Source: Scenedesmus sp. PABB004
Lineage: Eukaryota
Reading direction: 5' to 3'
Length of the DNA: 64,000 nt
Assembly: GCA_014905635.1 (NCBI GenBank)
Contig: JABVCE010000004.1
Span: forward strand, 310,001-374,000
The stretch's first letter is position 1; every line of letters begins with the position of its first letter. Below, piece by piece: positions 27,098 to 61,773 of the stretch. The position numbers were made by a program, and so were the translations under genes. The notes beneath the pieces are model-generated. The model was not told where the DNA came from. It did not search any database and saw only the letters and a program-made list of their open reading frames with translations.

Positions 27098-30886
<3,789 letters not shown>

Positions 30887-31173
30887 CTTGCGGACCCGGG
30901 GTGGCACCGCGGGGCGCGCCTGGTCACGGGAAGAGGCCGAGCGGGGCGGAGGGGCGCCGGCAAGCGGAGCAGCAGCAGCACGGCCTTGAACCCCTCAGAC
31001 CCAGCGCAGCGCAGGAGCCGATTCCGGGCCCCCCGCTCCGGCAGCAGCGCTGCACAGCTCCTGCACGACTCTCCAGCACCCAGCACGGCGCGGCGTAGTC
31101 GGCACGTCCCGCGCGCGGCGCGCCCAGCCCGTTGGCTCTCTCGCCGGGCTCTCGCAGCGGCCGCTCGGGCGCC

Positions 31174-31834
31174 ATGGCGCTGGCGCGGCGAGGGACCCGG
31201 CGCCTCTCCGCGCCCGCGGCCCCGCACCGCCCGTGCGCGCCGCGACGACGGAGCACGCGCGCCCCGGACGCGCGGGAGCGCGCCGCCGAGCTGGCTGGCG
31301 GCGCCTGGGCCGACGCGGCGCCGGCGGAGCAGCAGCGCCCGTCGCCGCCGCCGCGCGCGGGCGCCGAGCACCGCGGGCTGCTGCTGGAGGAGCGCCCGGT
31401 GTCAGGTGCGCGCGGCCGCGGCGGCGGGCGGCGCGTCGCCGCGCAACCGCCGGCGCGGCGCGGCGCGCGAGCAGCGCTGACGCGCCGCGACACCGCCGCG
31501 CGGCGCCGCACGCGCAGTCGCGGAGCTGGTCGACCACATCTGCGCCGACGGCCTCGCCGCCATCGCGGCGACGTGGGCGGCGCAGGGCCCGGCCGCGACG
31601 GCCGCGCAGCTGGGAGCGCGAGGCCGCCCCATAAAGTGGGCGTGCTCCCCGGCCTCGCTACCGCCGTGGGAGCGCCGGCCGGTGGTCTCAACACCGGCGG
31701 CTGGGGGGATGGGGGCTGCCGGGGCGCCCCGGGGGGCGCCCCGGCGCCGCGGGCGCGCGGCGCGCGTGCGCGGCGCTGCCACCGCCGCGCGCGCGCCGCC
31801 GCCGCCGCCAACACCGACCATGGGCATCCTCTGA
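31174..31834 (+). CDS. Short spliced ORF of unknown function, or a 5' gene fragment, divergent from RPS3
   Basis: GCCATGG start. Intron 31406-31517 has G|GTGCG, a CTGAC branch point and GCAG|, joining LLLEERPVS to VAELVDHICADGLAAIAATW in frame. The 3' part looks non-coding and stops inside the hairpin region. Confidence 0.35.
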
Positions 31835-32035
31835 TCGCCGGCCGCCTGAAACAGGCCACAGCGGCGTGAGGCATGACGGTTTGGGACCGGCCCGTCGGTC
31901 GGTGCCCCCGCGAAGAGGGGGTCCCCCCCACCCGGAACGGGTGACAAGGCGAGAAACGCACGCGCACACGCCTGACCTAACCTGGCAACACAACACAACA
32001 GCAAGAGGCCTTTTAACGTCCTGCCCAGGACGGAG
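31810..32035 (-). ncRNA. Candidate Fanzor omegaRNA scaffold (hairpin-dense non-coding segment)
   Basis: Lies just downstream of the Fanzor stop. Stems at 32017-32032, 31929-31943, 31905-31921, 31885-31900 and 31844-31856, plus an 8-bp long-range pairing 31812-31819/31897-31904. Strand and function are inferred. Confidence 0.5.
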
Positions 32036-32059
32036 AGCGCAGCGCACCGCACACGCCGC

Positions 32060-33414
32060 TCACGCCGGGGGGTCCACCGCGGCGGCGGCCGCCTGCCGGA
32101 ACGCGCCGGCGAGGCGCGCGCCGCCCGCCGTGCCGCGGCTGCCGCGCAGCAACTCGTGCAGCGTGAGCGCGCAGATGTTGCGCGCCGCGTTGTCGTCGCG
32201 CGGCGCGACGACCGTGCACCCGGGGCACTGCACCAGACCATAGATGCCCCGCAGCTTCTCCACGCGCGCCCCGCAGACAGAGCAGGTGACGCTCGTGCGG
32301 TGCTCGTCCATGAGCACCGCGGCGACGCGCCGGCGCGCGTAGTAGGTGCGCAGCAGCGCCAGCAGCGCCTGCCGCGGCGGCCCCGGCCCCGAGATGCAGC
32401 CCCCCATGCCCAGGCTGGCGTCCCCGATGCCCAGCACCACCGCGGGCAGGTCGGCGGGCAGGCGCGCGTGCTGCCGGACGCGCCCGCGCACAAAGACCCG
32501 GCCGTATGCAGTCAACTGAATCGCCGCATGCAGCGCGCGCTGCTTCAGCCCGTGCTTCCGCAGCCGCCACGCACACTCTGCACGGCACGCAAGCAAGCTA
32601 TATGCGAATGCATTGTTGAGCACATGATGCACCCGGCCGTTGCGCCACGCCCCGGCGGCGGCGACGCTCGTGCCCGAGTATGCAGGCACGCGGTTCAGGC
32701 AGGCATGCACGCAGTCGCCGCCGCCGGGCGGGCGGCGGTCGTACCGCCCCGGCCGCCCCGGCCGCCCCTGCTGCCACGGCCGGTGCCGCTCGATCCCGCG
32801 CGCGTCGCGGTGTGCGGCGGTCTTTATTCTAATGATGCGCTCCGCCTCGTAGCGGCGGCCGTGGTCGCCGCGGTGGCGCGGCGCGTTGGGGCAGCGCCGC
32901 TGCGCGATGCGGCGGTGCGCGACGCGCGTGCAGCCCGGGCCCTGCCGCCAAGTCGCGGCACAAACCATGCGGGCCCGGCCCGGGTCGACTCCGACGACGC
33001 GCACGCCCGCGTGCACGGCCGCGGCCGCGCCGCGCAGCGCGTGCCCCGGCGGCAGGCCCTCCACGCCGCGCAGCTCGCACGGGTCGAGCGGCAGCGCGTC
33101 GAGCGCCGCCTCGTCGGCCACGCCGTGCCCAGCTGCGGCGTCGCGGCCAGCTGCTCCTCTCCCAGGCGGTAGCAGGCGAGCTGGCGCAGCGCGCCGCGCA
33201 CGCCCGCGAGCGCGCCCGGCGCGCCCGGCGGCGCGCTCAGCGCCGCGAGCAGGCGCGCGAGCTCCGCGCCGTCGGCGCTCTGCGCCGGCAGGAGCACGAC
33301 GCCCGCGCAGTCGGCTATGCGCGCCTGGCGCTGCGCCGTCCGCCTGCGCGGCTGCTGCTGCTGCTGCTGCTGCTCCTGCGTCAGGGGGGCGAAGAAGGCC
33401 GTTATCTTCGCCAT
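32060..33414 (-). mobile_element. Fanzor (eukaryotic TnpB-like) RNA-guided nuclease gene; RuvC/Zn-finger half intact, N-terminus atypical and apparently frameshifted at 33121
   Basis: RuvC-I VVGVDPG (D at 32984-32986), VLGIGDA...GPGPP, RuvC-II VLMDEHRTSVTCSVC (E at 32303-32305), CPGC, RuvC-III RDDNAARNI (D at 32195-32197). Intronless and locally more AT-rich than host exons. Confidence 0.88.
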
Positions 33415-33734
33415 CGCGCCGCCGCCGCGACGCAGCTGCGCGCGCAGCGGCTGCAGCGCTTGAACGGCGAGCGGCCGGGTGCGGCGTGCGCGGCGCGTGC
33501 GGCGGTGCAGACAGCTGCCCGGGGCGCTCTGGCCAGCCCGGGGAGCCCGGGGGAGGAATGGACAGCGACGACGGCGCGGCTTGAGCCCCGCCGACGCCGT
33601 CGTCGTCGCAACCGCCCGCCGCCACCGCCGCCGCCGGCGCCATTGCCCCGCGCACCGCCACGCGCGCGTCACGCTCGTCGTCGCCGGGGCAGCAGCTCCC
33701 GACGCCCGACGCACCGCGCGAGAGGGCGCCCCTG

Positions 33735-34345
33735 GCGCGCGCAGGCTGTGTGATGACTGGCTGGCTCACGCTCCAGCGCTCCTGCCCTGCGCGGCGCGCG
33801 CTGCGCACGCGCGCCGCCGCACGCCCCGCGCCCCGCGCCGCGCCGCGTGTGCCAGGGCCTGCGGCGCCCTGCGCCCCGCCACGCCGCCGTGGCGCGCTGC
33901 GCCTGGACCGGGCAGGGCGCTCCATCAGAGCACCACACAGCCGCTACCAACGGTGTGCCCACGTCCCGTACGCACACGCGCCCCGCTGCCGCCGCCTCCT
34001 GCGCACGTGCGGCGCCCCCTCCCCGCCGCCCGCTGCCCGGTCGCCGCGCGCCCGTGCGGTTGATTCAGTGAGGATGGCTCGCGGCGAGGCGCCGGGCGCC
34101 ATGCCCGGGCAGCCGTAGGCGGCGCCGCGGCAGCAGCGGCGCCGGCGCCATCGCGAGCGGCGGTCGAGCCGGCGCCATGGAGGAGGCCAAGGCCGCCGCG
34201 CTCTACGACGAGCTCCGCGCCAAGGGCGCGGGCGCACAGCGCGCCAAGCAGGGCCTGGGCTTCGGCGGCGGGTGCGGGGCGCGGGCGGCGCCGCGCTGCT
34301 GCCGCCGCCGCTGCCGCCAGCGGCGGCGGCGCGGACCGCGCGCGG
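33735..34345 (+). repeat. Copy B of the inverted duplication (promoter + exon 1 of the PRP40C-like gene)
   Basis: Matches the reverse complement of 14620-15215, including MEEAKAAALYDELRAKG.GAQRAKQGLGFGG and the GG|GTGCG donor. Confidence 0.95.
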
Positions 34346-37300
34346 CCCAGGCAGCGGGCGCCCACGCCTGCTTACCGGCGCACCCGCCACCGCAGGGGCC
34401 AGCAAGCGCCGCCGCCCGCGCAGGCGCCGCCGCAAGGCGGGCCACCGCCGGGCAAGTGGGGACCGCCGCCGCCGGCGTCGGCGCCGCACTTCCACGCCGG
34501 GCCGCACCCTGGACCGCCCGGCTTCGCACACCCCGGCGCGCCCGGCTTCCCGCCGCACGGCGCGCCCGGCTTCCCGCCGCCGCCCATGGGCCACTACCCG
34601 CCCGGCGGCCCTCCGCGGGGGCCGTGGGGCCTGCCACCGCCGCCCGGCTACGGCGGCACGCCCGCACCCGGCTACGGCGGCGCGCCAGCTCCCGGCTACG
34701 GCGGTGCGCCACCTCCCGGCTACGGCGGCGCGCCGCCGTCGGCGCCGTACGGGGTGCGGCGCAGCGACCGGCCGCCCGCGCGCCCCGCCGCCGCCGCCCG
34801 CGCCGACGCCGCCGCCCGCCCGCGCCGACGCCGCCGCCCGCGCCGACGCCGCCGCCCGCCCGCGCCGCCGCCGGCGCCGACGCAGGCGCCGCCGCCGTTT
34901 GCGGCGCCGCGCGGCGCGGCGCTGCCGCCGCCGGCGGCGGGGCGGCCGCTGACGGAGGAGGAGCTCGAGCAGCGCGCGCTCGAGGAGCAGGCGGCGGCGA
35001 TCGAGGCCGACTTTGCCGCCGCCGACGCGGCGGCGGCGCGCGCCGCGGCCGCCGAGGAGGCGCGCGCGCGCGTGGCCGCCTGGGCGGCGCACAAGGCCGG
35101 CGACGGGCGCACCTACTACCACAACAGCCTGACCGGGGAGTCGAGCTGGACGCGGCCGGACGGCTTTGCCGGCGACGAGGCCGGCGCGGGCGGGCCGCCC
35201 GTGCCCGTCGCGCAGGCGCAGGTCGGCGACACGCGCTGGTTTGAGGTCAAGTGCGCCGACGGGCGGCGCTACTTTTTTAACCACGCCACGCAGGAGACGG
35301 CCTGGACCGCGCCGCCCGAGGTGGTGGAGGCCAAGGCGCGCCAGGCCGACGAGGCCGCGGCGGCCGAGGCGCGCGCGCACGCCGCCGCGGCGGAGCAGCG
35401 CGCGTTTGCGGCGCGCCAGATGCAGCAGGCGTCGGTCGCGGCGGCGGCCGCCGGAGGCGGCGGCGGCGCCGGCGGCGGCGCGGCGCCGTGGGCCGCCGCG
35501 CCGGTCGGCGCGGCCGCGGACGCGGTCCGCGCGATGCACATGCAGCGCATGGCCGCTGCGCGGCAGCAGGGTGGCGACGCCGGCCACCTCGACAAGGGCG
35601 CGCGCGTGCAGGTGCCGCGCGCCGCACGCCGCGCCGCGCCGAGCGTGCGCCGCGCCGCCGGCCGCGCGCGCGCCGCTCAGCGCCGCGCCGCGCCGCGCCG
35701 CGCCACGCGCCGCCAGGCCTTCAAGCGCCTGCTGAGCGAGGGCGGCGTCAACGCGTTCAGCCTCTACGCCAAGGCCAAGAAGACCCTCGAAAAGGACCCG
35801 CGCTGGAAGCTGCTGCCCAGCGACGGCGAGCGGCGCCTCGTCTTTGACGGTGCGCCGCCGCGCGCGCGCGCGCCGCGCGCGCCGCCGCCGCCGCGCCGGG
35901 CCAGGCGGGCGGCCCACTCGCGCGCGCGCCGCGCGGCCCGCGCCGCGCAGAGTTTTGCAAGAATGTGGCCGAGGAGCAGAAGGCCCTTGCCGCGGCGGCG
36001 GAGAAGCAGGCGGTGGAGGGCTTCAAGTGAGGCGTGGGCCTGGCTGCTGCCTGGACCTGCCAGCCCGCTGTGTGTCGCGCCGCAGCGCAGCCGGCCGCCC
36101 ACGCCCGCCCGCGCCCGCGCGCGCCCGCGCCGCGCAGGGCACTGCTGGAGGAGGCGCTGCAGCTGGAGCGCCAGCTGCACGTCGCGCTGCTCGCGGACGA
36201 GCAGGCGCAGGGCGCCGACGGCGCCAACGGCGAGGCCAGCGCGGGCGAGGAGGGCGCCGCGGACGGCGCCGACGGCCCAGGTGCGCGTTCGCGATGGGCC
36301 CGCCGACTGCGGCGGGCGCGGCGGCCGCTGCTGACGCGCGCCGCGCCCGTCGGCAGGCGGCGCCGCTGTGCCGGCGCCTGACGACGTGCCCGAGGAGGCG
36401 CTGGAGCTGAGCCTGGAGCAGCTGGAAAAGTACTGGTGAGCGAGGGGCGCGGCGGCGCACGCTTGCGGGGCCTGCTGGGCACAGCGCCCAGCGCGCCCGG
36501 CGCCGCGCCGCAGGTCCAACGACGAGCGCTGGGACGCGGCCACGGCCGAGCAGCGCGCTGCCCTCTTCCAGAAACGCTTCGGCGCGGCGGCCGCCGCCGC
36601 GGCGGAGCGGCGCGCGGCGCAGCGGCGCCAGCAGGAGGCGGACTTCCGCCGCCTGCTGGTCCACCTGGGCGTGCACGCGGACAGCAGCTGGCGCGGCGGC
36701 GTGCGCGACGCGGTGCGCGCCGCGGCCGCGGCGCACCAGAAGCAGTCGGCGAGCGGCGGCGGCGACGCCGGCCGGGCGGCACCGGACGCGGCGACCGCGG
36801 CGGCCGCGGCGGCGCTGGACGAGGCCGAGCGCGAGGCGCTGTTCCGGGCTGCCGTCGCGGAGCTCGCGGCCGCGCGCGACCGCGCGGCGGCGAGCGAGCG
36901 CGCCGAGGCGGCGCGCGCGGCGGCCGCCGCAGCGCGCATGGCCGAGCAGTCGGCGGAGGCCGACGCGCGGCAGCGCCGCGCCGCGCGCAGCGACGCGGCC
37001 GCCGCGTTCCGCACGCTGCTCGGCGAGACTGTTCGGAGCGAGGTCGGCGCCGACTGGGACGCGTGGCTGCCCAAGCTGCGCAAGGACCCGCTGGTGCGCG
37101 CACGCGCGCGCCGCGTCGGCGGCCCGCGCGGCTGGCGGGCCGCCCCGCCCGTGCGGCTGGCCCGCGCCCGCGCCGCCCGCGCCCACGCCGCCCGCGCCCG
37201 CGTCGCGCCGCACGTGCTGCGCAGAAGCGGGCCAGCAATGCGCTGCTGGGCGAGGGCGACATGGCGCGGCTGTTTGACGAGCATGTCGCCGCGCTGGCCA

Positions 37301-37890
37301 AGGCGTCTGCCGCGGGCGCCGCCGCGGCGCTGCGCGAGCGGCTGACGCCGCTGCTGCCGGGGCCGCTCGCGGCGGTCGCGGCCGCGGCGTCGGCGGGCGT
37401 GCCCGACCCCGCCGCGGAGGCGGGCGCGGCCGCGTGGCGGCGCGCGGGCGACGGCGAGCTGGCGGACGAGCTGCGGCACTTTGCCGCTGCGGACGACGCG
37501 CTCGGCGGCGACGAGCGCTGGGCCCGGGCGCCCGAGGGGCTGAGGCGGAGCGCCTGGCGCGCCTGGGTCGACGAGGCCGTGTGGGGCAAGCCGCCGGCGC
37601 CGCCGGGCGGCGAGCCCGGCGCGCACGCGCGCGGCGGCGCGGGCGCGCGCGACCCGCCGCCCGCGCGGGAGCGCGACCACCGCGCGCCGCGCGACCACGG
37701 CGGCCGGGACAGGGAGCGCGAGCGCGACCGGGAGCGGCGGGACGACCGGGAGCGGCGGGATGACGGCCGCCGCGAGCGCGAGCGGGAGCGGGAGCGGGAG
37801 CGCTCCCGGTCCCGCTCGCGCGAGCGGGAGCGCGGCCGCGGCAGTCGCTACGAGGGCGACGAGCGCGACCGCAAGCGGGCGCGCGGCTGA
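34177..37890 (+). CDS. PRP40C/TCERG1-like WW + FF domain RNA-processing protein
   Basis: Pro/Gly-rich N-terminus and two WW domains (WAAHKAGDGRTYYHNSLTGESSWTRP; WFEVKCADGRRYFFNHATQETAWTAP). FF repeats (AFKRLL...DPRWKLL...RRLVFD; AFRTLL...W...LRKDP) and an RE/RS tail. Exon 1 34177-34271 splices in frame to 34396. Confidence 0.88.
34643..34740 (+). repeat. Coding 24-nt tandem repeat (PGYGG[T/A]P[A/P]) x4
   Basis: CCCGGCTACGGCGG recurs with a 24-nt period inside the Pro-rich exon. Confidence 0.8.
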
Positions 37891-38224
37891 CGCCTGGGCG
37901 GCGCGCGCCTCGGGGTGGCCGCGGGGTCGGTTACCCGGCCGCGCGGCGTGTGTGGTGCAAACCCCTGATGCATGCCGGCCAAGGGCATGAGAGTCGCGCA
38001 GTGCCCCGACACGCTGCCGCTGCAGGCCCTACGAACGAAACAATGCCACCGCGGCGCGCCCGGCCGCCGCCCGCGCGCGCGCGCGCGCGGGCGCGCGCAA
38101 GAGATCGCCCCGCGCGCGCGCCTACCAAAACACCAAAACAACCGCGCTGCGCGCCCCGCCGGCCAGGGCGGTCCGGGGCGCCCGCTGCGCCACCTGCGCC
38201 GCGCCCGCTGCGTGGTCGGCCCGC

Positions 38225-55326: not shown

Positions 55327-57674
55327 TCACAGCTCGTCGCGCGCGGGCCCCCACTCGCCGCCGGACAGCCGCGCCATGGTGAGCCCGAGCACGCCGACGC
55401 CGGCGCGAATGTCGGCCTCCGACGCAAACTCGTCGGGGCGGTGGCTGTAGCCGTGGGCGCAGGGAATGAAGATCATGCCGGTCGGGGCGATTCGCGCCAT
55501 GAACAGCGAGTCGTGGTACGCGCGGCTAACCATGCGCTTCGCGCTCAGCCCCAGCTCGGCCGCCGACGCCGCGATCGCGTCCTGCACGTCCCCGTCGCAC
55601 GCGGCGGGCGGGTCCTGGTTGATGAGCGCCGACGCGACGCGCACGCGCCGCGCGGCCGCGATGGTCGACGCGGACGCGAGGATCGCAGACACGACGCCGT
55701 CGCGGCGCGCGCCGTCGACGTCGCGCACGTCTGAGCGCGCGTGGCGGCGGGCGGTCAACGGGCGGCGTTCAACGGGCGGCGCTCGGCCGGCGGCGGTCGG
55801 CCGGCGGCGGCGGAGCAGGCCGGGCGTGCGGGCCGCGCGCGCGCGCGCGCGCGCACCGATGGCGAGCCGCGCCTCGCGCGGCACGCTGTTGACGGCGTTG
55901 GGCGAGACCTCAAACTTGCCCGTGGTCCCGACAGTGTCCTCCGCGCCCGTGGCCAGCGTGTGCGCCTCGACCGCAAGCGCCAGCTCCGCGCCCGCGAGCC
56001 CCGCGTCGTTCCTGCGACGCGCGCGCCGCGCGGCGCGCGCGGCGCGCGTCAGGCAGAGGCCGCCCCGCCCGCCCGGCCCCTGGCGCCCGCCGCCGCCCGA
56101 GGCCCCCGCCGCCCGGCCGGGCAGCGCCGCCGCCGCCGCCGCCGCCGCCGCCCCCGGCCGCACCGCAGCGGCATGAGCTGCGCGCCCGCGTGGCCGCCGT
56201 CGCCGGAGAACGTCACCTCGAGCGCCGCGGGCGCAGCGATGGCGGTGACGACGCCGATGTCGACGCCCTCCTGCGCAGGTGGTCGGGGCGGCGTTTGCTG
56301 TTTGCCCCGGTGCGCGCCGCCGCTCGCGCGCGCGCGCTCGCCGCGCGTGCGCCCGCGCGTGCGCCCGCGCCCGCGCATGCCCCCGCCCGCGCACCGCCTC
56401 GAGGGTGGGTCCCTGCTCGATGTGCAGCTCCACAAAATAGTCCACCACCCCCGGCGCCGTGCGCGCCGCGTCGAGCACCGCCTGGTGGCTGCTGCCGCCG
56501 TAGCCCGCCGCGTTGGCCGCCTGCGAACGGAGGAGGTCGGCGCCGCGCGGGCGCTGCCCGGGTGCGTGTGCCGCCCGGCCCGTGCGCGCCCGGCGTGCCG
56601 TGCCTGTAGGAAGGTGGTCCCGTTCTCGTCGCGCTTCGCGTCCAGCGTCTCGGCGCTCAGCGCGCCCGCCATCGCGCGGCTGCCGATGCAGGAGAGCTTG
56701 AAGCGCGTGGGCTCCTCGCTCGTGAACATCATGACCTCAAGGCTGCGCTTGGGCTTGAAGCCCTGCGGCCGGCGGCAGTCCGCGGCGGCGGGGCGTGAGC
56801 AGGGGCCCCGAGCGCGGGGCCGGGCAGCCCGTCCCGCCGCCGCCGTGCCGCGCGTGCTGCGGCGCACCGCGCGGCGCAGCGCGGCGAGGGCCTCCACGGC
56901 GCCGATGACGCCGAGGGTGCCGTCGTACATGCCGGCCAGCGGGATCGCGTCGCAGTGCGACCCCGTCAGCACTGATCCGAGGCTCGGGTCGGAGCCCTCC
57001 CAGCGGCCAAAGATGTTGCCCACCGCGTCCTCCCGCACGGCCAGGCCGGCGCTGGCCATCAGATCCTTCACGAAGCTGCGGCCGGGCGGCGGCGGGCAGC
57101 GGGCAGCGTGCGGCGGCGGGCGCGGGCGCGGTGCAGTCGGTCCGGCGTCGGCCGCGGCACGAGCCGTGCCCTCGGCCGCGGCACGAGGGCGCCCTCGCTG
57201 CCGGCGCGGCGCTGAGGGCGCAGCGCGGCTGCCAGGTCCAGCAGGCTGGCCTGCCACCCCCTCGGCCGCCGCAGCCGCTGGCGGCGCTGCGGTAAGCGAT
57301 TAGCCCCGTCGCCCGCTGCTGCCGCCGCGCCCCCGCCCCCCACTCACGCCCGCGCCTCCATGTCTCGCGGAGTGAAGAGTATGCGCGTCACCGCGGGGTT
57401 GGGGTCATCGCTCAGGGCAGCCAGCGCGGTCAGCTGCGCAGGGCAGCGCGGCGCGTGAGCTCGCGCGATGGGCCGCCCCCTCGCCGCGTGGGCGGGCCGC
57501 TGCGCCCGTCTGGCGGGCGCGTCACGCTTGCCGCAGCTCTCTGCCCCCCAAACTCACGTCAGCGACCACTTTGCTCGCGTCCACAGCCAGATTGGCGCTG
57601 CTGCCCGCGCTCGCCCGCGTGGCGCACGCCAGCAGGGCTAGCGCCAGCGCCAGCCGGGCGCGCCCCGAGGTCAT
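55327..57674 (-). CDS. UAH: Ureidoglycolate amidohydrolase (M20/allantoate amidohydrolase family), ER-luminal
   Basis: Signal peptide, TGSHCDAIP, FTSEEPTRF, FVELHIEQGP, GGHAG, MVSRAYHDSLFMA, GYSHRPDE, C-terminal RDEL. Confidence 0.92.
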
Positions 57675-58096
57675 TGAACTCACGCCGACGTGCCGGGCGA
57701 ATTTGGTTGCCGCTGCGCGCGCGTGTGGGAGAGGGCTGGCGGGCGCTGGTGTTCGGCGAGCCCGCGCGCGCTGGTGCGTCAGACGGACGAGGCGGAGAGC
57801 CGGGAATGCGGGGAGCGCGGCGGCGCGCGGAACAGGACTCCGCGAGGCCGCGCACGTGGCATATCAGGGCAACGCAGGCACGACAGCGGCAGTGACGCCT
57901 GCTGCTGCCTGCCGCTCTGCCTCCTGGGCGCACCCAGAGGTCGGCACGCTCGTCACACCACAACCCTGACGCTGGGCGTGAGAGCCGGACCGCATGCGCT
58001 GAACTTACTCGCGCGACAACAGCAGCGGCGACCAGCGCCCTAACCGCCGCGGAGGGCTCACACAGGGGGGCTGCTCTCCGCGCCGCTCGCCCCTGG

Positions 58097-59776
58097 ATGG
58101 TCAAGCACGTGGGCCACACGCCGTGGTGGCCGCAGCGGGACAGCCCCGCGGCGGCGTCACTGCCGGCGCGGGTGCTGCTCTCGCCGCTCTGGCTGTACCA
58201 AAAGCTCATCTATGACGGCCGGCCCGACACCGCCGGGCTGAAGACGCGCCCCCCGTTATGGCGCGTGCTGCAGAGCCAGTGGCGCTGGCTGCAGGCCGCG
58301 ACGTGCTACGTGGGCCCGCCGGCGCACATCCTCGTCAACATTCGCTGGCCGCTGCTGGTCAACATGATGCTTGCCATAGGCATCGTCGCCGACCTGGCGC
58401 GCCCCACGCCGCTCCTGCCGCACTTTGGCACGTTTGTGATCACCACCTGGCGCCTGATCAGCTTCGTGATGGCGCTGCTGCTTGCGTTCAGGCTCAACCG
58501 ATCGTACGACCGCTGGTGCGGCCGCACGCCGCGCCGCGCCGCCCCGCCGCGCCGCTGCCGCGCCGCGCGACCTGCCGCGCCACCCGGGGCGCCACCACGT
58601 GCAGGTGGCTCGCGCGGCAGTCGTTTGGCGGCGTCGCCGGCGCGAGCATGGCCCTCAGCCAGCAGGCGATTGCGTACGTGCAGGACGCCGCGATACGCGT
58701 GAGCCGCCCGCCGCGCACGCCGCCGCGCACGCCGCAGCGCACGCCGCCGCGCCCGCGTCCGCCCCACAACGCGCGCGCTGCGCGCGCAGGCGGAGCTGCT
58801 GCGCTGGGCCAAGGTCTGGCCGTGGTGCATACTGCAGGCGTGCCGCGGCGACGCGTCGCTGCACGCGCGCGCCGCCGCGGTGCTGACTGCGGACGAGCTG
58901 CGCTTCTATGACGCGGTGCCCAAGCCCCGCGAGGTCATTCACTTCAACCTGCGCTCGCTCGTGGCGCTCGCGGGGCGGGCCCTGGGCGACGCGGAGCACC
59001 AGGCGCTGGAGGGAACGGTTGCCACCGGCATCGCCGCCGCGGGCGGCTGCGTGCGTATCCGCATGCAGGCAATGCCGCTCGCGGCGAGCCTCATGTGCAC
59101 GGGTGCGCGCGGCGCTCCGCGGCCGCGGCCGGGAGAGCGCCGTCGGCGGGCCGCCGAGAGCGCCGCCGGCGGCCCACGCCACCGCACGCGCCCGTGCCCC
59201 CGTGCGCGCGTCGTGGCCGCGCGCGCGCGTCGCGGTGGCTGTGCCGTCAGGTTTCTTGCAGATCTTCCTGATGTTTCTGCCCTGCGGGCTGCTCATGGAG
59301 CTGCCGACCACGGCCGCGACGCCCGCGTGGGGCCTGGTCATCTACTTTTTCACCTGCGTGCTGCTCCTCGGCGTGGACGAGGTCGCCAACCAGCTGGAGA
59401 TGCCGTTTACGGCCATCCCGATGGAGGACATGGCCAACTCGACGGCGCGCGACCTCGACATGTGCGCACAGCGCGCCACGCGCGCTGTGCGGCGGCTCCG
59501 CAGCTGGCCGGGCGGCGCCCGCTGCGCCGCGCTGGCTCTCTCTCCTGACCCCGCGCCCGCTGCCGCCGCCGCAGCCTGCTGGGACAGGCGGCGGCGCTGG
59601 GCGCGCTGCGGGAAGCGGCGCTCGAGCGTCACCGCTGCTCGGCCGGCGCGGCGCCGCCGGCGTCGCCGGTGCCGCCGGCAACGACCGCTAGTGTGGCCGG
59701 CGCTGACGCGGCAGTCGCGGGGCCGCAGCAGCTGCCCGCGGCGGGCGCGCAGCAGCAGCGTCGCATGGCGGTGTAA
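58097..59776 (+). CDS. Bestrophin-like (UPF0187/RFP-TM) anion channel, copy 1
   Basis: LLLAFRLNRSYDRW|WLARQSFG and LLGVDEVANQLEMPF. 5 exons, with the TAA overlapping TGTAA. Confidence 0.88.
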
Positions 59777-60108
59777 CCAGAACCTCAAGGCCCGCTTACG
59801 CGCGTTTGGGTCGGCGATGTCGGTGCCTGTCGCCTCCTGGTGGCCCGCCCGGATCGACGTGCCCGATCGCAGGCTCGCCGCGCCCCGACGCAGCTCCCCC
59901 AACGGCGCGACGCCGCCGCGCCCGGTGAGCTGCTATCTCTTCACAGGAGGTCGCGCGCTCCTCAAACCACCGACCTGAACTCCTTGGCACGCGCGAACCG
60001 GACCGTCGGCGGTGGTCTGGCCTGCGCGCTCCACTGCGCGCAGCAGCAGCGACCAGCACCCTTACCGGCACACACAGGGGGGCTGCTCCGCGCGCCGCTC
60101 GCCCCTGG

Positions 60109-61773
60109 ATGGTCAAGCACGTGGGCCACACGCCGTGGTGGCCGCAGCGGGACAGCCCCGCGGCGGCGTCACTGCGGGCGCGGGTGCTGCTCTCGCCGCT
60201 CTGGCTGTACCAAAAGCTCATCTATGACGGCCGGCCCGACACCGCCGGGCTGAAGACGCGGCCCGCGCAGTGGCGCGTGCTGCAGAGCAAATGGCGGTGG
60301 CTCCAAGCCGCGACGTGCTATGTGGGCCCGCCGGCGCACATCCTCGTCAACATTCGCTGGCCGCTGCTGGTCAACATGATGCTTGCCATAGGCATCGTCG
60401 CCGACCTGGCGCGCCCCACGCCGCTCCTGCCGCACTTTGGCACGTTTGTGATCACCACCTGGCGCCTGATCAGCTTCGTGATGGCGCTGCTGCTTGCGTT
60501 CAGGCTCAACCGATCGTACGACCGCTGGTGCGGCCGCACGCCGCGCCGCGCCGCCGCGCCGCCACGCCGCTGCCGCGCCGCGCGACCTGCCGCGCCACCC
60601 GGGGCGCCACCACGTGCAGGTGGCTCGCGCGGCAGTCGTTTGGCGGCGTCGCCGGCGCGAGCATGGCCCTCAGCCAGCAGGCGATTGCGTACGTGCAGGA
60701 CGCCGCGATACGCGTGAGCCGCCCGCCGCGCACGCCGCCGCGCACGCCGCAGCGCACGCCGCCGCGCCCGCGTCCGCCCCACAACGCGCGCGCTGCGCGC
60801 GCAGGCGGAGCTGCTGCGCTGGGCCAAGGTCTGGCCGTGGTGCATACTGCAGGCGTGCCGCGGCGACGCGTCGCTGCACGCGCGCGCCGCCGCGGTGCTG
60901 ACTGCGGACGAGCTGCGCTTCTATGACGCGGTGCCCAAGCCCCGCGAGGTCATTCACTTCAACCTGCGCTCGCTCGTGGCGCTCGCGGGGCGGGCCCTGG
61001 GCGACGCGGAGCACCAGGCGCTGGAGGGAACGGTTGCCACCGGCATCGCCGCCGCGGGCGGCTGCATGCGCATCCGCATGCAGGCAATGCCGCTCGCCGC
61101 GAGCCTCATGTGCTCGGGTGCGCGCGGCGCGCGCCGGCCGCGGGGCCGCGCGCAGGTGGCCGCCGCTGGCGCCCACAGCATGCCGCCGCGCCTGCGCGCG
61201 CGCGGCGCGCGTCGTGGCGGCTGTGCCGTCAGGGTTCCTGCAGATCTTCCTCATGGTTCTGCCCTGTGGGCTGATGGAGCCGCCCACGGCCGAGACGCCC
61301 GCGTGGGGCCTGGTCATCTACTTTTTCACCTGCGTGCTGCTCCTCGGCGTGGACGAGGTCGCCAACCAGCTGGAGATGCCGTTTACGGCCATCCCGATGG
61401 AGGACATGGCCAACTCGACGGCGCGCGACCTCGACATGTGCGCACAGCGCGCCACGCGCGCTGTGCGGCGGCTCCGCAGCTGGCCGGGCGGCGCCCGCTG
61501 CGCCGCGCTGGCTCTCTCTCCTGACCCCGCGCCCGCTGCCGCCGCCGCAGCCTGCTGGGACAGGCGGCGGCGCTGGGCGCGCTGCGGGAAGCGGCGCTCG
61601 AGCGTCACCGCTGCTCGGCCGGCGCGGCGCCGCCGGCATCGCCAGGGGTGGCGCCGCCGGCGTCGCCGGTGCCGCCGGGAACGTCTGATGGCGCATTCGG
61701 TGCTCACGTGGCTGTCGCGGGGCCGCAGCAGCTGCCCGCGGGCGGCCCCGCCACCTTCGCACCAGAGGTGTAA
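60109..61773 (+). CDS. Bestrophin-like anion channel, copy 2 (tandem paralog)
   Basis: Same motifs and exon structure as copy 1, offset by about 2.0 kb. Confidence 0.88.

Follow-up and report, generated by a model that had tools for sequence, protein, structure and literature searches.

A Fanzor nuclease lobe without its recognition half, probably a truncated transposon copy of the Fanzor1 lineage, in a GC-rich green-algal genome

The 64,000-nt stretch analyzed here (contig JABVCE010000004.1, positions 310,001 to 374,000 of the forward strand; called the window and numbered from its first letter) carries a Fanzor-like open reading frame (ORF), P0001, on its minus strand at 32063-33121. The translation, Pfam, profile, and fold of P0001 all pointed to the nuclease half, RuvC plus zinc ribbon (TNB), of a TnpB homologue, and it is a real Fanzor nuclease (NUC) lobe, probably of the Fanzor1 lineage. 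On balance, the locus is probably a 5'-truncated, non-autonomous transposon copy of this lineage. Such a copy would have been truncated during transposition and would now be inactive. As assembled, P0001 probably does not work as an RNA-guided nuclease. Fanzors are eukaryotic RNA-guided nucleases, and new lineages of them are possible genome-editing scaffolds and a record of transposon-host history. A literature search, made at the level of titles and abstracts apart from the papers cited here, found no published description of this element.

Results

P0001 was 353 residues long and intronless, with its stop codon at 32060-32062. The motifs VVGVDPG, VLGIGDA..GPGPP, MDEHRTSVTCSVC, CPGC, and RDDNAARNI followed one another in its translation. 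This agreed with a first-pass annotation of the stretch, which had described a 353-codon intronless minus-strand frame with these motifs in this order and had recognized in it the RuvC and CxxC..CxxC module of TnpB and Fanzor proteins. The module was found again by Pfam, by profile searches, and by structural comparison with Foldseek and VIA-align. The Pfam family PF07282 (Cas12f1-like_TNB) matched P0001 with 39.8 bits against a cutoff of 26.3 (E = 5.2e-10), and the segment 32108-32518 scored 42.1 bits for the same family. The NCBIfam TnpB models NF040570, NF038280, and NF038281 reached 23.9, 22.2, and 21.3 bits, below their cutoffs of 100, 350, and 425, respectively, and their matches were confined to the last ~50 residues of P0001.

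A phmmer search of 1.84 billion representative proteins returned 34 relatives of P0001 at E ≤ 1e-3. The best full-length relative had 627 residues and was 37% identical to P0001 (E = 1.1e-18). Two of the 34 matches looked low in complexity and were left out of the alignment. A family profile of 536 positions was made from six full-length relatives and was run unfiltered on all six-frame stop-to-stop pieces of the window. The profile matched the P0001 frame at E = 1.3e-44 and was contiguous over positions 261 to 531, indicating that the nuclease part is interrupted by neither a frameshift nor an intron. The sole other piece below E = 0.01 (E = 0.0094) was low in complexity and lay within the RPS3 gene, on the strand opposite to P0001.

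An alignment of 33 sequences (A1) was the basis of a structure model and of a second profile. The AlphaFold2 model of P0001 had a pTM of 0.70 and a pLDDT of 85 to 93 in the core strands and helices. All 13 matches at E ≤ 0.001 in a Foldseek search of the PDB were Fanzor or Cas12f chains (SpuFz, AsCas12f, OsCas12f, ApmFz2, and GtFz), and TnpB came next at 5.8e-3. The first-pass annotation had proposed a Foldseek comparison in which a lack of RuvC, TnpB, or Fanzor matches would speak against it, and SpuFz, AsCas12f, ApmFz2, GtFz, and TnpB were the top matches. Z scores from VIA-align were 10.7 to 11.8 for the model against the nuclease lobes of Fanzor, Cas12f, and TnpB. The A1 profile matched the solved chains of ApmFz2 (8e-18), Cas12m (1e-16), SpuFz1 (2.8e-15), GtFz1 (1e-13), PpFz1 (9e-13), and ISDra2 TnpB (2e-9). 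The predicted fold is that of RuvC (RNase H-like), with a zinc ribbon inserted between RuvC-II and RuvC-III.

The RuvC-I Asp was D46 in VVGVDPG (32984-32986, minus strand, as are the other residues given here), which fell in the "idPG" column when aligned with the profile of the relatives. The count of about 45 residues before RuvC-I in the first-pass annotation was therefore correct. RuvC-III was represented by R308 and D309 in RDDNAARNI (32195-32200), both in nearly invariant columns. The C4 zinc ribbon, C280-x2-C283 ... C299-x2-C302 (32216-32284), had four nearly invariant Cys residues and was part of the PF07282 match. In all, nine nearly invariant columns were kept in P0001: E273, T276, S277, C280, C283, C299, C302, R308, and D309. 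Bao and Jurka (PMC3627910) give the superfamily motif as D-X(125,275)-[TS]-[TS]-X-X-[C4 zinc finger]-X(5,50)-RD. P0001 has this motif as D46, 229 residues, T276 S277 V T C280..C283..C299..C302, 5 residues, and R308 D309.

The block GIGDASLGMGGCISGPGPP (32375-32431, minus), located by translation, profile, and model strand 227-234, corresponds to the TnpB strand on which the canonical RuvC-II Glu is located. In P0001, this strand (...VVLGIGD, residues 227 to 234) ended in Gly233/Asp234, followed by the G..P block, and the relatives have D, N, or S there. In the Fanzors described by Jiang et al. (PMC10530073), the canonical RuvC-II Glu is changed to Pro or Gly, with another, conserved Glu about 45 residues downstream as the alternative. 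P0001 showed the same combination of an inert canonical position and an alternative Glu. This Glu, E273 in MDEHRTS (32303-32305, minus), occupied a nearly invariant column of A1 and lay 39 to 40 residues past the canonical position. From the alignment, E273 is presumably the catalytic glutamate of a triad formed with D46 and D309. The complete triad claimed by the first-pass annotation is thus in place, but its Glu is in MDEHRTS and not in VLGIGDA, where Gly and Asp are found.

Assignment to Fanzor1 rather than Fanzor2 is likely from the relatives of P0001. P0001 has the block GIGDA..GPGPP, and a similar "GDA..G.PSTP" occurs in the Fanzor proteins of Bao and Jurka but not in the ApmFz2 alignment. 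The relatives carry a Fanzor1-type TDG block, a region that the window lacks. The profile scores did not separate the two groups, being 68 bits for ApmFz2, 60 for SpuFz1, and 54 for GtFz1. The earlier description of the ORF as "most like Fanzor1" is plausible in view of the TDG block of the relatives, but the scores against Fanzor1 and Fanzor2 chains do not decide the matter.

The half of the protein that precedes RuvC in related nucleases was missing. In the account of Saito et al. (PMC10432273), a core of WED and RuvC is common to Fz, TnpB, and Cas12a; REC and WED read the target-adjacent motif (TAM) and form the heteroduplex channel with RuvC. Structural alignments of the P0001 model started only at model residue 31 to 37 (SpuFz 368-633, ISDra2 TnpB 182-378, and AsCas12f 215-422), indicating that P0001 consists of the RuvC and zinc-ribbon lobe only. 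No convincing match to the WED/REC half (profile positions 1 to 260) was detected in any frame of the 64 kb. A comparison of P0001 residues 1 to 130 with shorter proteins gave none out of 153 candidates. The suggestion of the first-pass annotation that the REC/WED lobe is missing or replaced was borne out by the structural alignments and the profile. P0001 does not have the WED/REC lobe of a functional effector, and because this lobe is lacking, the known RNA-guided mechanism cannot operate in it.

The TDG block gave a similar result. In five of the six full-length relatives, a block "FA.H..TDG...CVH" stood in register about 100 to 150 residues before RuvC-I, and in the sixth (P0029), STDG was elsewhere in the alignment. 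The string TDGV occurs 18 times in the Fanzor protein file of Bao and Jurka (supplement file 9) and is upstream of the DPG motif in each case shown. No TDG-type block was present upstream of P0001 on the minus strand. The string "FAGAPTDG" near 31914 (31893-31916, minus, LFAGAPTDGPV), past the stop codon of P0001, was considered as a displaced TDG block and rejected as chance, having no following strand motif and no coding signal.

A frame discontinuity at 33121, a feature absent from the first-pass annotation, was found at the 5' end of the ORF. GC by codon position, codon log-odds, and the maximum-likelihood switch point placed a -1/+2 shift at 33121-33129 (minus). The coding signature, with GC highest at the third and lowest at the second codon position, followed the P0001 frame over about 33160-32081 and a different frame over 33430-33161. 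The different frame holds P0037, a 96-codon ORF (33127-33414, minus) that begins MAKITAFFAP... from an ATG at 33414 and is one base out of register with the P0001 frame. The codon log-odds table was built on 41 segments of host exons with Pfam support, 3,995 codons in total. Host exons scored 0.61 ± 0.13 per codon in frame (minimum, 0.37) and -0.80 in the other five frames (maximum, 0.18). The score of P0037 was 0.65, and that of the Fanzor frame upstream of 33121 was -0.83. The codon usage of P0037 is therefore indistinguishable from that of host exons, and the Fanzor frame upstream of 33121 looks noncoding.

As assembled, translation from the ATG at 33414 ends at 32824, short of RuvC. Within the Fanzor frame, no ATG occurs from the break up to M51, which is past the RuvC-I Asp. 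In-frame ATGs that would include RuvC-I lie upstream, the nearer at 33646, with about 175 noncoding-looking codons in that frame. P0001 is not a self-contained gene as assembled. An intron bridging the two frames was rejected, since positive-scoring codons reach 33121-33129 from both sides and leave no room for one. Programmed -1 frameshifting was also rejected, no slippery heptamer being visible at 33119-33132. The one-base discontinuity could mark the junction of an insertion, or it could have arisen by later mutation or in the assembly.

P0037 matched no Pfam family above cutoff (best, DUF6752 with 17.6 bits against a cutoff of 27) and had no Atlas relative. Its single-sequence model predicted four helices at low confidence (pLDDT, 64.8). 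P0037 may have been captured or invented as a 5' part, or it may be a small exon of the host. Its start, MAKITAFFAP (33385-33414, minus), is followed by seven glutamines and a basic patch, and we take the KITAFF start to resemble N-terminal PCNA-interacting boxes.

The codon usage of P0001 itself was less host-like. The log-odds score of the whole ORF was 0.25 per codon, below every host segment. By residues, the score was 0.50 for 1 to 49, 0.22 for 50 to 101, -0.15 for 102 to 176, -0.01 for 177 to 201, and 0.41 for 202 to 353. The GC3 of P0001 was 0.918, and 0.855 in its middle third, compared with 0.956 (minimum, 0.91) for the 41 host exon segments across the window. The higher A/T content that the first-pass annotation had noticed relative to neighboring exons is thus real but modest, and the overall G+C of P0001 (0.73 to 0.76) is matched elsewhere in the window. 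Host genes are cut into many short exons, those of citrate synthase being about 60 codons long. A filter flagged 190 coding-like segments, the longest of 209 aa, compared with 353 uninterrupted codons in P0001. The lower codon adaptation together with the longest uninterrupted coding stretch fits a relatively recent, partly adapted arrival.

Among 5.8 billion clusters, a word-indexed search turned up a single close relative, P0002 (KAF8064625.1, Scenedesmus sp. PABB004, 271 aa), which was 98% identical to P0001 over the last 115 residues. Its gene model begins at the equivalent of M239 and continues into an OB-fold protein (PF21473). This OB-fold protein was absent from the window by tblastn, indicating that the P0002 copy is in a different neighborhood. 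The ORF had been described as "sitting alone" among housekeeping genes. Ordinary host genes do surround it, but this need not mean a single copy, given P0002 and the metagenome variants.

The metagenome data comprised eight runs from four studies, each with a small share of the stretch, and contigs from four were compared over 29000-36000. The contigs matched 31640-33010 at about 95 to 100%. In some runs, the pieces with the Fanzor part were deeper than those of the flanks, but depth was not taken as a measure of copy number. X5 and X7 both had 9 nt in place of the 102 nt at 32098-32199 (net, -93). Variant contigs also had a 15-nt deletion at 32531, and one 693-nt X7 contig had, in addition, a gap of ~56 nt and a change that added 6 nt net. 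The indels 3' of the stop codon were of 1, 1, 1, 1, 3, and 3 nt. Substitutions were taken from 40 of 55 rows, in which strains and paralogues are indistinguishable. Among those listed, 23 were in the ORF; 14 were synonymous (third positions) and 9 changed a residue, against an expected synonymous share of 28% (binomial P = 0.0009). One of the residue changes among the contigs was the V278I of the PABB004 protein. From this synonymous excess, the nuclease half appears to have evolved under purifying selection among the variants. The remaining TnpB-like loci were all too distant to be used for ends or covariation. There were 15 such loci in metagenome contigs at 30 to 48% identity and 1 in viral contigs at 39%, and genome contigs contributed 12, which were cyanobacterial, Bacillota, and Gallionella TnpBs.

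Downstream of the ORF, a noncoding stretch at 31640-32059 (minus) was common to the metagenome contigs and had no coding signal in any frame. This is where the guide (omega/f) RNA of a Fanzor would be expected. No Rfam match was obtained within 28000-38000 at E ≤ 1, and the 331 nt around and after the stop codon (31800-32130) folded no better than shuffled sequences (z = -0.48). The best flanking direct repeats were 11- to 14-mers, in about the number estimated for chance, and the longest 14-mer was of CGC-type low complexity. Repeats within 30500-35500 were GC-rich and of low complexity. A 13-nt perfect inverted repeat, GCCGGGGCGCCCC / GGGGCGCCCCGGC, with arms 2 nt apart, was seen 3' of the ORF at 31718-31745; it is probably unremarkable at about 85% G+C. 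Loose contig ends near 31418-31447 and 32882 were considered as element ends and were not used, being in low-complexity DNA and in poor agreement.

G+C ranged from 0.71 to 0.885 along the profiled 26- to 40-kb stretch of the window. Around the Fanzor-like ORF it was 73 to 85%, and spurious stop-to-stop frames of 600 to 750 codons were plentiful on both strands. Because of this extreme base composition, ORFs were nearly uninformative, and codon-position G+C was the practical guide to exons. Pfam annotation of 141 coding-like segments (≥50 aa) gave Mem_trans, acylphosphatase, citrate synthase, Cu-ATPase, FAE1-type synthase, CFAP65, an RRM protein, and RPS3. Also annotated were the TNB segment, a PRP40-like protein with WW and FF domains, sulfite/nitrite reductase, TEDC1, UDPGT, EamA, SMC, M20 peptidase, two bestrophins, and multicopper oxidase. 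The Fanzor-like ORF is within the 3.3-kb interval between the start of RPS3 (~30900, minus) and the start of the PRP40-like gene (~34178, plus).

Self-blastn revealed a duplicated block at 33734-34339, which contains the upstream region of the PRP40-like gene and its first coding segment (MEEAKAAALYDELRAKG...). An inverted copy is located at 15212-14620, about 19 kb away, with 89% identity over 616 nt. The peptide segments at 34150-34278 (plus) and 14815-14687 (minus) were near-identical. The second copy is just upstream of the Cu-ATPase gene region, and one of the two copies may therefore be a captured or pseudo first exon. The edge of the block at 33734 is the upstream boundary of the locus-specific DNA near the Fanzor-like gene. 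The best protein match of the PRP40-like WW region was only 62% identical, and the search returned no PABB004 orthologue.

Two further features of the window were seen in neighboring genes. Nearly identical bestrophin-like genes (Pfam Bestrophin_2) stand in tandem at 58091-59510 and 60103-61486, with matching exon segments about 2 kb apart, and seem to have been duplicated recently. A GC-AG intron of 83 nt (56521-56603, minus) separates "...TTFLQ" from "AANAAGYGG" in the M20 peptidase-like gene, indicating that very short, non-GT introns occur in this genome.

Discussion

If the locus is a truncated transposon copy, a Fanzor-carrying, non-autonomous element would have landed in the interval between RPS3 and the PRP40-like gene of a Scenedesmus-like green alga. 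Truncation would have taken away the WED/REC lobe, the reader of the TAM and the holder of the guide-target duplex. The remaining fragment would now abut P0037 at 33121-33129, one base out of register. In full-length parents, RNA from the 3' end of the element would guide the protein to cut DNA next to a TAM, a guide-RNA mechanism by which the P0001 copy could not cut as assembled. The first-pass annotation had offered a non-autonomous remnant and a stand-alone, possibly domesticated, Fanzor as alternatives. The remnant is the better supported of the two, and a stand-alone or domesticated active Fanzor is not supported.

Several observations weigh against a transposon copy. None of the 141 coding-like segments of the window matched a transposase family at E ≤ 0.001, as the first-pass annotation had noted by eye, and no Helitron protein was among them. 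Repeat searches around the ORF found no element ends, terminal repeats, or target-site duplication above chance. The single close relative in the protein collections fits a low-copy gene and a masked repeat equally, and the other neighbor of P0002 could reflect a between-species rearrangement rather than transposition. An assembly error is possible at the frame break, with no contig piece listed over 33011-34051. The host-like codon usage at both ends of P0001 (0.50 and 0.41) and the synonymous excess with mostly in-frame indels also fit a host gene under selection.

The strongest of the alternatives, itself improbable, is a domesticated or exapted mini-Fanzor. This would be a host gene of about 447 codons, from the ATG at 33414 to the stop at 32060, in which a short helical N terminus replaces WED/REC. 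Its promoter region would be shared with the divergent PRP40-like gene, the frame break would be an assembly error or a very recent lesion, and the RuvC and zinc ribbon would be used otherwise, for example, as a nuclease recruited by a partner. Such a gene would explain why the catalytic and zinc residues are all intact, why 14 of the listed changes are synonymous and 9 are not (P = 0.0009), and why the lengths of most coding indels are divisible by three (9 nt for 102, -15, and +6 net). The codon usage of P0037 is fully host-like, and its ATG is about 760 nt from the start of the divergent gene. The failure to find transposon ends or a transposase in the window, and the finding of one close relative only in about 15 billion predicted proteins, also favor a host gene. 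As assembled, however, the two frames do not join and no intron fits. The codon usage of the middle third is not that of the host (-0.15 per codon), and the closest copy adjoins a different gene and has a model that starts at residue 239. The gap of about 56 nt in one variant contig would break the frame, and the N-terminal piece has no relatives and a low-confidence fold. The selection argument is also weakened, because descent of copies from an active master element gives the same synonymous pattern as selection on a host gene.

A more specific proposal, which must be considered doubtful, is that the host retains a half-Fanzor. In this case, purifying selection would maintain a nuclease lobe that has lost WED/REC and gained a short host-coded N terminus, with the PCNA-box-like KITAFF at its start and poly-Q and a basic patch after it. 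Its expression would be divergent from that of the PRP40-like gene, and a protein partner rather than its own RNA would direct it to its substrate. If true, this would mean that a eukaryote had exapted the nuclease half of an OMEGA effector, in mirror image of the bacterial nuclease-dead TnpB derivatives. It would also be an unusual mode of domestication.

Slightly less credible again is an intact, still mobile compact Fanzor, in which the break results from misassembly, the 140 residues ahead of RuvC-I serve as a minimal recognition lobe, and the 3' flank supplies a guide RNA. The coding-like signal is indeed contiguous over 33414-32063 if one base is discounted, and the triad is intact. The 3' flank is common to the variant contigs down to at least 31640, and near-identical copies at two loci suggest recent mobility. 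Against this, the N-terminal part is much longer in each of the six full-length relatives and includes a TDG block, and even in TnpB, the smallest of the solved relatives listed, about 180 residues precede the aligned RuvC part. The N-terminal piece is predicted to be all-helical and is poly-Q and Ala/Gly/Pro-rich, without a beta-rich WED. The 3' flank gave neither a structure signal nor an Rfam match, and in contig X1, it was less conserved (8 differences and 3 gap letters per 272 nt) than the ORF (7 per 603 nt). Element ends, which an intact element would have, were not found. Finally, a chance open frame or low-complexity artifact in 80% G+C DNA deserves virtually no credence: long spurious frames are common in the window and 2 of the 34 representative matches are low-complexity-like, but the above-cutoff PF07282 match, the family profile match at E = 1.3e-44 over 270 positions, the Foldseek and A1-profile matches, and the nine nearly invariant columns rule it out.

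With P0001, an extremely GC-rich Scenedesmus-like alga joins the hosts of a chlorophyte Fanzor lineage that is represented in the collections searched mostly by metagenome proteins without names. If the locus is indeed a truncated transposon copy, the form that is common in Chlamydomonas would occur in this alga too. P0001 is not a candidate editor, because the half that recognizes RNA and DNA is absent. The near-identical variants suggest that a full-length, recently active parent probably exists in the same or a related genome (Scenedesmaceae). The practical value of P0001 is as a probe or pointer to this parent, which is the sequence worth finding.

The Fanzor1 elements of Chlamydomonas are the nearest known parallel by description. 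In the account of Bao and Jurka (PMC3627910), CRe-1, CRe-2, and CRe-3 are non-autonomous Helitron2 elements that are "frequently 5'-truncated" or internally deleted and have intact 3' ends, and such truncation is attributed to one-ended rolling-circle copying. Jiang et al. (PMC10530073) describe CrFNuc ("Fanzor1c") as present in six copies on Helitron2, with a conserved 3' untranslated region (UTR) RNA and no detectable cleavage. An Auxenochlorella preprint describes diverse Fanzors that are sporadic in green algae. Like the Chlamydomonas elements, P0001 has a green-algal host, belongs to the same superfamily with the D...[TS][TS]xxC4...RD motif, and has no transposase of its own. The frequent 5' truncations and internal deletions there have a counterpart here in the truncated half and the internally deleted variants. 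In contrast, the Chlamydomonas genes have 5 to 10 exons, whereas P0001 is intronless. The Chlamydomonas elements are described with Helitron2 ends, with target-site duplications next to TTTT, and with a conserved RNA from the 3' UTR, but none of these was found at the P0001 locus. The nearest full-length relative found was only 37% identical.

SpuFz1 of Spizellomyces punctatus (8gkh and 9cey, with omega RNA and target DNA) shares with P0001 the RuvC and NUC/zinc-ribbon lobe (Z = 11.4 to 11.5). In SpuFz1, however, about 367 residues of WED and REC precede the RuvC part, and these have no counterpart in P0001. ISDra2 TnpB and Cas12f (8h1j, 7wju, and 8j1j) share the RuvC/TNB fold and the PF07282 zinc ribbon. 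Unlike P0001, they are prokaryotic, have the canonical RuvC-II Glu, and carry a WED/REC lobe of about 180 to 215 residues.

Domesticated derivatives of TnpB include RNA-guided transcription factors (bioRxiv 10.1101/2023.11.30.569447). P0001 is like them in being a TnpB-family protein that may have left its transposon. The domesticated derivatives keep the lobe that binds RNA and DNA and lose the nuclease residues. P0001 is the reverse, with its nuclease residues kept and its binding lobe gone.

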